Assembly: GCA_964016885.1 (NCBI GenBank) | Contig: OZ024743.1 | Location: 94,302,001 to 94,366,000 of the forward strand | Length of the DNA: 64,000 nucleotides | Source: Eledone cirrhosa | Lineage: Eukaryota | Reading direction: 5' to 3' | Shown here: one piece after another, positions 1 through 63,544 of the stretch | Layout: every line of letters begins with the position of its first letter | How positions within the stretch are numbered: the first letter of the stretch is position 1 | The notes under the pieces: generated by a model | The model's database searches: none | What the model saw: the letters and a program-made list of their open reading frames with translations, nothing else | Told to the model about the DNA's origin: nothing | Program-made: the position numbers and the translations under genes

Positions 1-3000
1 GTCGCTCTGCGCGCATCTCGGGCAGGTTCGTCTGACAGCACTTCCGTGCCTGTAGAGTTTATCCCGAACCGGCAGCGCCCCCCGGTAGCACTGCCAAGCG
101 AGGGATTTCTGGAAGTTATCCATCGTCCCCGGCTCGAAAGTCCTCCGGAACATACTGGTCAGTTCTACTTCGTTGACGCCCAGAGCCTCTCCTAGTACGT
201 CATCGCACTTGCCCTCCACTAATCCTCTATAGAAATCTTGAGTGGAAGTTCCACTGACCGCATTGCCCACCTTGCAGAGTGCAGTGAGCGCCTGGCAACA
301 TTCCAGATGCCAGTCGCCCAGTCTCGGTCTCTTCTTGACCCAGGACTGCAGCTCAGTCAAAGAGATGAGCTGCGGAAAGGCCCGTCTAACAAACGGCGAC
401 CACACCTGTTCACCGTTTAGGCAAAATATCTGGAGATGTCGCAGCCTCAGCGCATGTCTGCGCATCATTAGCCACGGCATGCCCAGCCCTCCACGAAGAG
501 GGTGCTGGCAGCAGATGGACCGCCTCACCAACGGGACCCGTCCCCTCCACAAAAATTTGAAAAGGAGCCGTTCCAAATTGGCGAGGCGTGGACGGGGGCA
601 AGGCACGACGGTCAGGCGGTAGTAGATGACGGACGCGATGTACGCGTTCGCCACCTCCGCCCGCCCTTTCAGTGATAGCTTTCTCTCAGCCCATTTCTGG
701 GTGAGGTTGGCTATCCTGCTCGTCACCTCGTCCCAATTCTTATCCACCTGGAGGTCTGGTCCGAACCAAACCCCGAGCAACTTTACCGGTCCGTCTGTCC
801 AGCGCCCAACGACGCTGTTGGACGGCATGGACTTGCCTCTCCAGGTGCCGAGCTGCAAGCCCACCGACTTTTCCGGGTTAAGTTTTGCTCCCGTCAACCT
901 TTCATATTCCTCCAAATGGGTGCGGATCACCTCGATTTCCGAGGTGTCCGACACCATCACGGTGATGTCGTCCGCATAAGCGGACGCAGCCTTTCTACGT
1001 CCCGGTTCGAGCGGGATGCCCTGCAACAACTCCAGCTTCCGCAGTAGAGGCTCAAGAGTCAATACGTACAGAAGTGAGGAGAGAGGGCACCCTTGACGGA
1101 CCGATCGAGAGATCTGAAACGGTTCCGAGAGGTGGCCATTAACTTTGACCACCGAGCGGATGCCGCTGTACATTGCAGCGATCCAGCTTCTGAAGACGGG
1201 GCCGAAGCCAGCCGCCTCGAGGACAGCCTCCAAGTACCGATGGTCGACCCTATCGAATGCTTTCGATTGATCTAAATTGATCAGAGCCCCACCGAAGCCA
1301 GGTTTGCACCCAACCCTCTCTATGATGTATCGCATGAGGTGGAGGTTGTCGTGTATGGACCTGGTCGGGATTGCGCAAGTTTGCGCCTCCCCAACCAAAT
1401 CTTTGACGACAAGCGCCAACCTTTTCGCTAACACCTTGGCCAAAATCTTAAACTCTGTGTTGAGCAGGGTTATGGGCCTGAAATTATCTAGTGTGTCCCT
1501 CTTGTTCTCGTCTTTCCTTATCAGCGTCACTACGCCACGGCTCACAGAACTGGGAATGCTCCCGTTCTGCTGCCAGTTGCAGTAGAGCGCTTCGAGGAGA
1601 TCGGAGAACAAGTCTGGCATATTTACGTAAAGCTCGTAGGGCAGACCATCCAAACCGGGTGACTTGCGACTCGAGCAGCCGACAAGGGCGTCCTGAATTT
1701 CGGCTGATGTTATCGGCTCTTCGCAGCGCTCAGCATCGGCCGTCGAGAGGCGTGGCAAGCCGTCGAGGTAGGGACTGAAGTCCGCCGCCGTCTCCGACTC
1801 ACCCATCCTCCCGAACAATCGAGCAAAGTGCTGGCGAAAGGCCTCACACATCTGCTTGGAATCGCTCAGTTCGTGTCCATCTCGATCCGTCAAAGACCGA
1901 ATTGTGGTTTTATTTCCACGCTGCGTCTCTGCAAAGCGAGCCCATCGGGCAGCTTTGGTTCCCTCGTTCCTCAGAGCACGCGCCTTAGCTCTGACAATGC
2001 AACCTTCGTGTTTCGCATTGAAGAAATGGTCTAGTGCCATTCTCGCCGCTAGCACGTCTGTTGCAATGCCACTACAAATAGCCTCGTCTAACTTAGCTAT
2101 CAGCCCCTCCTCCTTTCTATTTTTCTCTATTGCTACTTCTTTGCTAAATCCTATCGAGGTTGCTCTAATCTCTCTTTTGAGTGCCCCCCACCACCTGTTG
2201 TTGACAACCCCCCCTGTCAACTTTTGCTTAACTAAGTTGTTGACCCGGTCCCTGTAAGCTTTACGTGCCGGAAACGACATGTTTAGCTTCCAGTAGCTAG
2301 GTCCTAACCTACGTGTCTTATCTAGGTCGACCATACAGATCACAAGCTTGTGATCTGAATAGGCAACCGTTTTAAAATGTGGACATCCTACACTATTTCT
2401 ATCTCTTTTCCTAATGAAAATCCTATCTATGTACGATCTAGATGACCCTATGCGATTGGTCCAGGTCCATACTGGCGCATTAGGGAAATCTAGTCGGTAC
2501 CTGTCAGACAGTTGAAACTGGCTGATCAGGTACTTGAGGCTTTTGCACCCCCCGCTCCTATCAGATACTCCCACACAATCCCAGCGTGCTTCTAAGATGC
2601 CATTCCAATCCCCTATTAACAGTAAAGGGCGAGACGTAAGCAGAAAGTTTTCCAGGCGCCTAAAGAAGTCCGGCCGACCGGCCCCAGTAGGGGCGTAGAC
2701 GGCCACCAGTCTAAAGGCACCACCTTCGCTATTGCTCACGTCCAGGACCACCAACTTTCCGTCAGGATCCCGGAAGATTGACCTTACCTCGAGATCCAGA
2801 CATTTCCTAAACAGCACAGCCACTCCACCTCCCATTCCCGGCCGACTAACAGATGCAAAGATCTGATAATCGTCGAAAATCGGCGCCAGTGCGCGTGTGT
2901 CGGAAATTCTGGTCTCGCTGATGGCAATTACATCCATTCCTAGTGACCTGAGGTCGTTGAGCAAGTGACCTTGCTTCCAGGGCGACCCCAGGCCACGAAC

Positions 3001-3027
3001 ATTTAAACTTCCTACTCTTATGGCCAT
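1..3027 (-). CDS. LINE ORF2: AP endonuclease + reverse transcriptase + start of C-terminal Zn finger (3' partial, >1009 codons)
   Basis: ATG at 3027 gives MAIRVGSLNVRGLG...DVIAISETR (APE). SAYADD (YADD 978-967) and CPRCAQSD at the window edge are in the same frame. Its absence from the ORF track is consistent with no stop before position 1. Confidence 0.92.
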   Translation of the reverse strand, partial: MAIRVGSLNVRGLGSPWKQGHLLNDLRSLGMDVIAISETRISDTRALAPIFDDYQIFASVSRPGMGGGVAVLFRKCLDLEVRSIFRDPDGKLVVLDVSNSEGGAFRLVAVYAPTGAGRPDFFRRLENFLLTSRPLLLIGDWNGILEARWDCVGVSDRSGGCKSLKYLISQFQLSDRYRLDFPNAPVWTWTNRIGSSRSYIDRIFIRKRDRNSVGCPHFKTVAYSDHKLVICMVDLDKTRRLGPSYWKLNMSFPARKAYRDRVNNLVKQKLTGGVVNNRWWGALKREIRATSIGFSKEVAIEKNRKEEGLIAKLDEAICSGIATDVLAARMALDHFFNAKHEGCIVRAKARALRNEGTKAARWARFAETQRGNKTTIRSLTDRDGHELSDSKQMCEAFRQHFARLFGRMGESETAADFSPYLDGLPRLSTADAERCEEPITSAEIQDALVGCSSRKSPGLDGLPYELYVNMPDLFSDLLEALYCNWQQNGSIPSSVSRGVVTLIRKDENKRDTLDNFRPITLLNTEFKILAKVLAKRLALVVKDLVGEAQTCAIPTRSIHDNLHLMRYIIERVGCKPGFGGALINLDQSKAFDRVDHRYLEAVLEAAGFGPVFRSWIAAMYSGIRSVVKVNGHLSEPFQISRSVRQGCPLSSLLYVLTLEPLLRKLELLQGIPLEPGRRKAASAYADDITVMVSDTSEIEVIRTHLEEYERLTGAKLNPEKSVGLQLGTWRGKSMPSNSVVGRWTDGPVKLLGVWFGPDLQVDKNWDEVTSRIANLTQKWAERKLSLKGRAEVANAYIASVIYYRLTVVPCPRPRLANLERLLFKFLWRGRVPLVRRSICCQHPLRGGLGMPWLMMRRHALRLRHLQIFCLNGEQVWSPFVRRAFPQLISLTELQSWVKKRPRLGDWHLECCQALTALCKVGNAVSGTSTQDFYRGLVEGKCDDVLGEALGVNEVELTSMFRRTFEPGTMDNFQKSLAWQCYRGALPVRDKLYRHGSAVRRTCPRCAQSD

Positions 3028-62464: not shown

Positions 62465-63544
62465 TTTCTTTTCAAAGAAATTTTTTGATAATCATAAAAG
62501 TTTAAATTTTGGGCACAAGGCCCCAATCTTTTTGGGTCTCCTTTTCGGAAAACATTGTATGTGCGCTTATATATAGTTAACAATAAAAATTTTCCATAAA
62601 TGGCAATTTTTAACAAACGGAAATAACAAACCTTTGCGAAGCTCACGATGATACGATTTACTACGTAGGTCGCCAATAATAATAATAATAATAATAATAA
62701 TAATAATAATAATAATAATAATAATAATAATAATAATAATAATAATAATAATAATTTACTTATAATTACTGGACAGTAATTATAAGTAAATTAAAGATCA
62801 GTCGAAACCGAAATAATTCCGTTAACAATTTTGAAAATATGGTTAAGAGGGCTCCATCTTTTATTTATTTAGGAAGTGAAAAAAACATGGAAATTCAAGT
62901 AATATACTGCAATTCTTCTTGACCAATACACCGCTGTGTTAGAACAGATATTAGCATTATTCCGCACACAGAAAGACGAGATGTTTCCGAATAATGTGGT
63001 TATGTGAGGATGAAGTGAACTATGCATAAAGAAAGAAACTTTATTGGTGAAATATTTTTTTGAAATGTTTTTAAATTTTATTTTTTTTTTAATTTATGAA
63101 TTTATAAAAAGCTTCATTTGTCGACAAATGTAAACATTGGCTAAAGAACCACCTTATTTTACGTTTTATCAATGGAAATCTGTTTTGTTTCTTTTTTTTT
63201 ACTTTTCAGCAAAAACAAGGAAAAACTTAACATTTTTCAAATAGGTGTTGAAGTATATATTTTTTGAAAATTCTACACTCTATGTATTTCGTGAAAAGTT
63301 CACACTGCTATAATTAGGATAACTTCTTAGTTTTCAAAGTTTTGCAGTACTTTTACGAAAGGTGTTTTAGCTTAACTCTTAACATCTAAAAATGAGTTTC
63401 TTAATTCAAATGTTTAGACATGTTACTTCTGGACAGATCATTGTAAAATATTACAGAAAAACTAAAATAAAAACTTGAATTTACAATGTGATGGAATCGA
63501 GTGCTGTGTTCTACTTTTCAACAATTCAGCTTCATGTGGTACAG

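Follow-up and report, generated by a model that had tools for sequence, protein, structure and literature searches.

A stretch of 64,000 nucleotides from the 3.0 Gb genome of Eledone cirrhosa (GCA_964016885.1, contig OZ024743.1, positions 94,302,001 to 94,366,000; called the window below) contains two long interspersed elements (LINEs), A and B, both of which lie in AAT tracts. From their relatives across the genome we conclude, with good confidence, that A and B represent a large and recently expanded L1-group, probably Tx1, lineage that inserts into (ATT)n in one orientation, that a sister clade inserts into (TATC)n, and that the site is likely chosen by the APE endonuclease together with RNA–DNA pairing. 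The features of the window that bear on this are listed here (ORF, open reading frame).

1..5128 plus 652 bp before the window start, minus strand: element A, full-length LINE of 5,780 bp, followed by (AAT)15 on the plus strand (from the neighbouring stretch)
1..3027, minus strand: ORF2 of element A, open, 1,139 amino acids in total, with APE endonuclease and reverse transcriptase
3057..4919, minus strand: ORF1 of element A, open, 620 amino acids, one CCHC knuckle; its core resembles RRM/zf-CCHC proteins, a lead only
5129..5158, plus strand: (AAT)10, 5′ junction of element A
23497..23535, plus strand: empty paralogous target, (AAT)13
40556..40594, plus strand: second empty paralogous target, (AAT)13
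57235..57282, plus strand: AAT tract with one unit altered, 3′ junction of element B
57283..62674, minus strand: element B, both ends present; frameshift in ORF2 near 58700 and, near 61940, a deletion of about 500 bp from ORF1
62675..62755, plus strand: (AAT)27, 5′ junction of element B

Elements A and B and their target tracts

The junctions are as an earlier note on this DNA described them: A ends in TTCGTC before (AAT)10 at 5128/5129, B ends in GTCGCC before (AAT)27 at 62674/62675, and beyond the 3′ end of B there is a further AAT tract (57235–57282) and no poly(A). The note's proposal that the tract was present before A inserted is borne out by the two paralogous sites, which are uninterrupted (AAT)13 tracts with the same flanks on both sides as those around A. 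The filled site contains 25 AAT units, compared with 13 in the empty paralogues. Tracts of (AAT)4 or longer number five in the window (225 bp, 0.35%), three touching an element and two being the empty sites. The commoner TA, CA/TG and GA/TC tracts (51, 17 and 19 in the window) carry no such insertion, again as noted, and A and B both end in AAT.

Two other statements required revision. The ORF1 proteins had been described as barely alignable, which does not hold: another B copy and A are 35% identical over 202 amino acids (E 7e-44), and the poor match of the copy in the window arises because it lacks about 500 bp of ORF1. In ORF2, A and B are 72–75% identical. The proposed common start GRCGA applies to A and B themselves but not beyond them, since family B2 starts with GAATG and A2 with GGCCG, leaving only the first G in common. 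Families A, A2, B, B2 and C share a 3′ terminus; the 5′ untranslated regions (UTRs) differ among the four families compared, and every one begins with G.

(ATT)n is a target throughout the genome

Copies were collected with queries that contained no flank sequence. Of 40 loci scored for B, the best 30 gave 31 5′ ends, every one running straight into (AAT)n; the same held for 30/30 of the A 5′ ends read, and AAT units lay alongside 30/30 of the B 3′ ends read. Genome-wide, 311/317 exact A 5′ ends adjoined (AAT)3, and 9,769 of the 12,911 exact 3′-end motifs were followed by ATTATT. Where both ends of a copy could be paired, AAT was present at the 5′ side in 100/101 cases, the exception being an A2 copy with TT before the tract; two candidates with unclear ends had been dropped. 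The 3′ junctions displayed showed no poly(A), although AATAAA sits 6–7 nt before the element end. The collected copies thus have AAT on both sides and a single orientation, where the earlier note would have given up its proposal had flanks been mostly unrelated or orientation random.

Neither is (ATT)n simply a 3′ tail, because empty sites exist and insertions are bounded by target-site duplications of about 13–18 bp that carry non-repeat letters. Three truncated B copies have such duplications, of 14, 13–16 and 18–19 bp, and two full-length A copies have duplications of 15 and 18 bp marked by an AAC unit; neither of these two has (AAT)3 at the 5′ side, which is part of the reason why they were picked.

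A 3′ end identical to that of A is shared by 39 copies, of which 37 are full length, 31 have a whole ORF2 and 24 have both ORFs. These copies represent the youngest subfamily; samples taken in order of position contain many truncated copies. Head-to-tail arrays are frequent and often mix families, and in one (G000:C1:423367682-423420172) ten A 5′ ends follow in a row at a spacing of about 5.84 kb. A repeat with 1,278 exact matches and an internal (AAT)3–19 tract is a recurrent insertion site (L321–L350). Chimeric copies joining the 3′ part of A or B to a B-like ORF2 and a different ORF1 (L109, L116 and L151) suggest template switching between families. At L020, L028, L030 and L085 the same AAT tracts are followed, beyond the LINE, by pieces that we take to be Dong/R4 reverse transcriptase, suggesting that two unrelated LINE groups share AAT tracts as a target.

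A sister clade in (TATC)n

Among the first 30 3′ ends by position, two had no ATT after the end, and collecting such ends yielded families inserted in (TATC)n. These have the repeat at both sides in full-length and truncated copies alike, and four truncated copies of family D, a member of this clade, have duplications of 11–16 bp. The 3′-end pattern of the clade followed by TATCTA gave 9,631 matches genome-wide, a count without a denominator. The earlier idea of an (ATT)n-specific group therefore stands as regards a large (ATT)n lineage and falls short in that a second, about equally abundant clade occupies (TATC)n, so that the whole is a two-target radiation. A third clade in (TC)n was considered and rejected: where TC-like letters follow the end, the copies appear to be off-target insertions by the TATC clade, to which most of the 100 listed belong.

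In a tree of full ORF2 proteins (nine from this genome and five from outside, two rows including residues upstream of the true start), the rows from this genome formed one clade with support 100/100, the TATC rows were grouped at 100/99 and the ATT rows at 86/90. Domain trees, for which 108 segments were reduced to 21, likewise had one branch parting the two classes. The full ORF2 tree makes the clades sisters (86/90), whereas a quick reverse transcriptase tree nests TATC within ATT (93, unstarred). Identity in ORF2 between the two classes is 65–75%.

Placement of the lineage

ORF2 of element A contains the Pfam domains Exo_endo_phos (the N-terminal APE), RVT_1 and a C-terminal zf-RVT. Its best match among solved structures, in a library that covers few LINE groups, is human L1 ORF2p (E 4e-56, residues 4–853); R2 matches in the reverse transcriptase part only (E 3.5e-22). 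With two ORFs, an ORF2 carrying APE, reverse transcriptase and a zinc motif, and L1 as the best match among those structures, A and B belong to the L1 group. Within it, Tx1 is the probable clade. ORF1 has a CCHC motif, its look-alikes in the atlas (0.89–0.92) have zf-CCHC, RRM or ZCCHC3 domains, and Pfam zf-CCHC fell below its cut-off; an ORF1 with RRM and zinc knuckle is a type associated with Tx1 in the available sections of PMC5203782. The shares of targeted flanks given above (311/317 and 9,769/12,911) exceed the 20% of flanks by which an available portion of PMC4494074 recognises target preference in Tx1.

The nearest group of proteins from elsewhere (P0002–P0042), a separate sister group, comprises 41 matches at 37–45% ORF2 identity, some in clusters of hundreds and with other hairpin loops in the endonuclease. 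A metagenome scan gave 80 loci, mostly 23–35% identical, none of which was listed with five consecutive ATT or TATC units. Part of element A is contained in 20 sequencing runs of 14 studies, with no RNA run among those listed. A search for an untargeted L1 control with the distant query P0056 gave 37 matches, and the 30 of these loci that were read all belonged to this lineage.

A candidate partner SINE

A short interspersed element (SINE) of tRNA type, about 200 bp long and abundant, is present in several copies in the window, two of which are of interest here.

20655..20859 (start approximate), plus strand: tRNA-type SINE, candidate partner SINE; 3′ end similar to that of the LINE, with ATTAT next to it
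23312..23496, minus strand: related SINE copy, its head abutting the empty (AAT)13 site

About 25 nt of the SINE and LINE 3′ termini are similar by eye. ATTAT follows 61/68 distinct SINE ends, a rate that may be inflated because the loci were mostly chosen near the LINE. Candidate duplications flank 21 ends (10–22 bp, median 15, a few doubtful). The SINE would likely be mobilised by the ATT clade. In crocodilians SINEU is likewise thought to be moved by a target-preferring Tx1 element, Tx1-Mar (PMC4494074, in part); the SINE described here differs in being of tRNA type, with a 3′ terminus matching the LINE and a short ATTAT site.

Endonuclease differences between the clades

A hairpin in the endonuclease reads NR-[IML]-G-S in 11/11 of the ATT rows in which it is covered and N[RH]-S-G-[TQS] in 8/8 TATC rows, giving a fixed difference at the tip of I, M or L in one clade and S in the other; three endonuclease rows were assigned to a target class by family, not by a flank read. 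The hairpin aligns with L1 residues 192–202, the βB6/βB5 loop, which has been implicated in target choice (PMC1950540, in part). Differences are also clustered at positions 54–65 and 151–162. The link between hairpin and target is a correlation over a single switch, as seen in aligned sequences.

Proposed mechanism

The observations would fit the following pathway. The endonuclease would nick the (AAT)n strand at T^A. The element RNA would read past AATAAA into a few AUU units, which would prime reverse transcription by pairing with the nicked end. The other strand would be cut about 13–18 nt away. Full-length RNAs would probably carry a few target units at the 5′ end too, such that the cDNA anneals in register and a uniform junction results. 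Each insertion would leave targets at both sides, allowing arrays to build up, and changes in surface loops of the endonuclease would likely have switched the target between the clades.

The 5′ part of this scheme draws on a deficit. Full-length A pairs without (AAT)3 at the 5′ side were expected in 12/79 cases for a 15-bp duplication or 7/79 for 12 bp; 1/79 was seen, and 6/317 genome-wide (Fisher p 1e-5 and 0.006, from samples that are not independent). Extra AAT units precede a marked duplication at L091, extra CTAT units precede an element in a satellite at L394, and the filled site in the window exceeds its empty paralogues by 25 units to 13. We somewhat favour the view, by analogy with R2, that target units are carried on the 5′ end of the RNA. 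The uniform 5′ junctions of R2 have been explained by annealing of target sequence on the transcript (PMC3774820, in part), as proposed here. R2 uses a ribozyme and rDNA; in five loci of the present lineage there were five weak Rfam matches, none of them a ribozyme.

Weighing the explanations

The most durable alternative leaves the endonuclease loosely T^A-specific, as in L1, and has pairing of the RNA repeat tail (AUU or UAUC) pick the site, the switch between clades being a change of tail. Some insertions do have just one or two repeat units next to their 3′ ends, the site used by the SINE, ATY^ATTAT, is short, and the 25 units of the filled site against 13 in the empty one mean that some units were added; the failure of loop grafting to move specificity in L1 (PMC1950540, in part) would also suit it. 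Tails would, however, follow the donor flank, whereas in many families that differ in their 5′ UTRs the target goes with the protein clade. In addition, where family D copies sit in a satellite, TATC is absent from the 3′ junction and CTATC lies just upstream of the site. On this balance we consider selection by the tail unlikely.

Near-random insertion, with the repeats being the element's own head and tail or with survival only in microsatellites, appears very improbable. Full-length copies may indeed carry some repeat units at both ends, but an empty paralogous tract exists, the repeat, or a duplication that begins with it, is still present upstream of 5′-truncated copies, the flanks of the youngest, near-identical copies follow this pattern too, and insertions enter the AAT tract of the unrelated 1,278-copy repeat, a tract without insertion in the first 30 copies of that repeat that were read. 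The view that a few insertions were multiplied chiefly through tandem or segmental duplication is hardly credible: there are head-to-tail arrays with up to ten A 5′ ends about 5.84 kb apart, and some loci are duplicates (L098/L099, L392–L394), but outer flanks differ from copy to copy over many contigs and the arrays mix different families.

Several observations nevertheless weigh against targeting of repeats through the endonuclease and RNA pairing as set out above. Target choice is not rigid: the first 30 3′ ends by position comprise 24 that start with ATTATT, two with ATT only, two with a variant first unit and two of the other clade; TC-like letters come after 345 ends; and three family D copies sit in the satellite. 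L164, a truncated A copy, is without a clear duplication. Grafting of the hairpin did not transfer the specificity of Tx1L to L1 (PMC1950540, in part), and the hairpin residue is not singled out, because about 50 endonuclease positions differ between the clades over one switch. Repeat slippage, or a short or variable duplication length, can mimic the signal of a 5′ leader.

Endonuclease choice with RNA–DNA pairing can be extended, tentatively and at somewhat less than even chance, to a reading in which one Tx1-like lineage is the main intact L1-type element of the genome, has come to that position by dividing, with a few changes in endonuclease loops, into specialists for (ATT)n and for (TATC)n, seals both junctions by pairing of RNA-borne target repeats, competes with Dong for these tracts and drives a major SINE expansion. 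If this were true, nature would have supplied, in the intact A and D proteins, a switch pair with which an L1-type endonuclease could be reprogrammed.

Other repeats of the window

Positions 5129–48000 are made up of tandem units of about 17–19 kb, 97–99% identical, with copies that extend past both window edges and others at L031 and L033; each unit carries a tyrosinase-domain gene (PF00264). Directly beside the 3′ AAT tract of B lies a repeat (55722–57234) with three further copies (9147–10723, 27958–29437 and 44672–46002), the end of which looks RTE-like, a label that we presume. A 30-bp satellite of 182 copies occupies 48324–53780, and a second, degenerate 30-bp array 63545–63930.

Relation to known elements and significance

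The microsatellite targets described for Tx1 elements are (TC)n and (TTC)n for Kibi and Koshi of teleost fish and (TTCC)n/(TTTC)n for crocodilian Tx1 (PMC4494074 and PMC3812793, in part). These are likewise APE-type elements of the L1 group that insert into microsatellites; compared by target and domains, the present lineage differs in its main targets, (ATT)n and (TATC)n and not the (TC)n/(TTC)n of the Kibi/Koshi type, in its invertebrate host and in its roughly 10,000 3′ ends for each target. Dong, of the R4 clade, also targets TAA repeats, including in a mollusc (PMC3812793, in part), and Dong-R4 is active in Octopus vulgaris (PMC13282606, in part). R4 elements use a restriction-like endonuclease (PMC4640811, in part), whereas A and B have an N-terminal APE, two ORFs and an L1-like ORF2. 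The two ORFs and the APE domain rule out a Dong/R4 identity for A and B, and the common target is likely a convergence.

In O. vulgaris, 80 L1-Tx1 families make up 56.3 Mb, and 13 recently active families account for 421 insertions and 2.29 Mb, at about 5.4 kb each (PMC13282606, in part). These are probably the same as, or related to, the A–D elements. The word 'target' is absent from the available text and supplement of that paper, and PMC9115989 makes no mention of Tx1. The available parts of PMC4640811, PMC9004415, PMC8869645, PMC5203782, PMC4758252, PMC3747384, PMC4824008 and PMC7265360 mention neither a Tx1 in (ATT)n or (GATA)n nor an octopus SINE partner. Thus microsatellite targeting by Tx1 and (TAA)n as a target of Dong are known, while (ATT)n and (TATC)n as targets of a Tx1-like lineage are apparently undescribed: neither was found as a Tx1 target in the literature searched, and a note in Repbase or Dfam may exist.

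How LINE APE endonucleases gain sequence specificity is an open question, and grafting between distant enzymes failed (PMC1950540, in part). The two clades described here have ORF2 proteins about 70% identical, open frames in both and different targets, which makes the question testable residue by residue; A- and D-type clades are likely a natural enzyme pair for the choice of landing site. Repeat-targeted and mostly full-length insertion (37/39 of the youngest A copies) is of interest for gene delivery tools. Recent papers on octopus repeats give L1-Tx1 without targets, in the parts available. With some 20,000 counted 3′ ends and a likely partner SINE, the lineage shapes the repeat content and the microsatellite structure of the E. 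cirrhosa genome.

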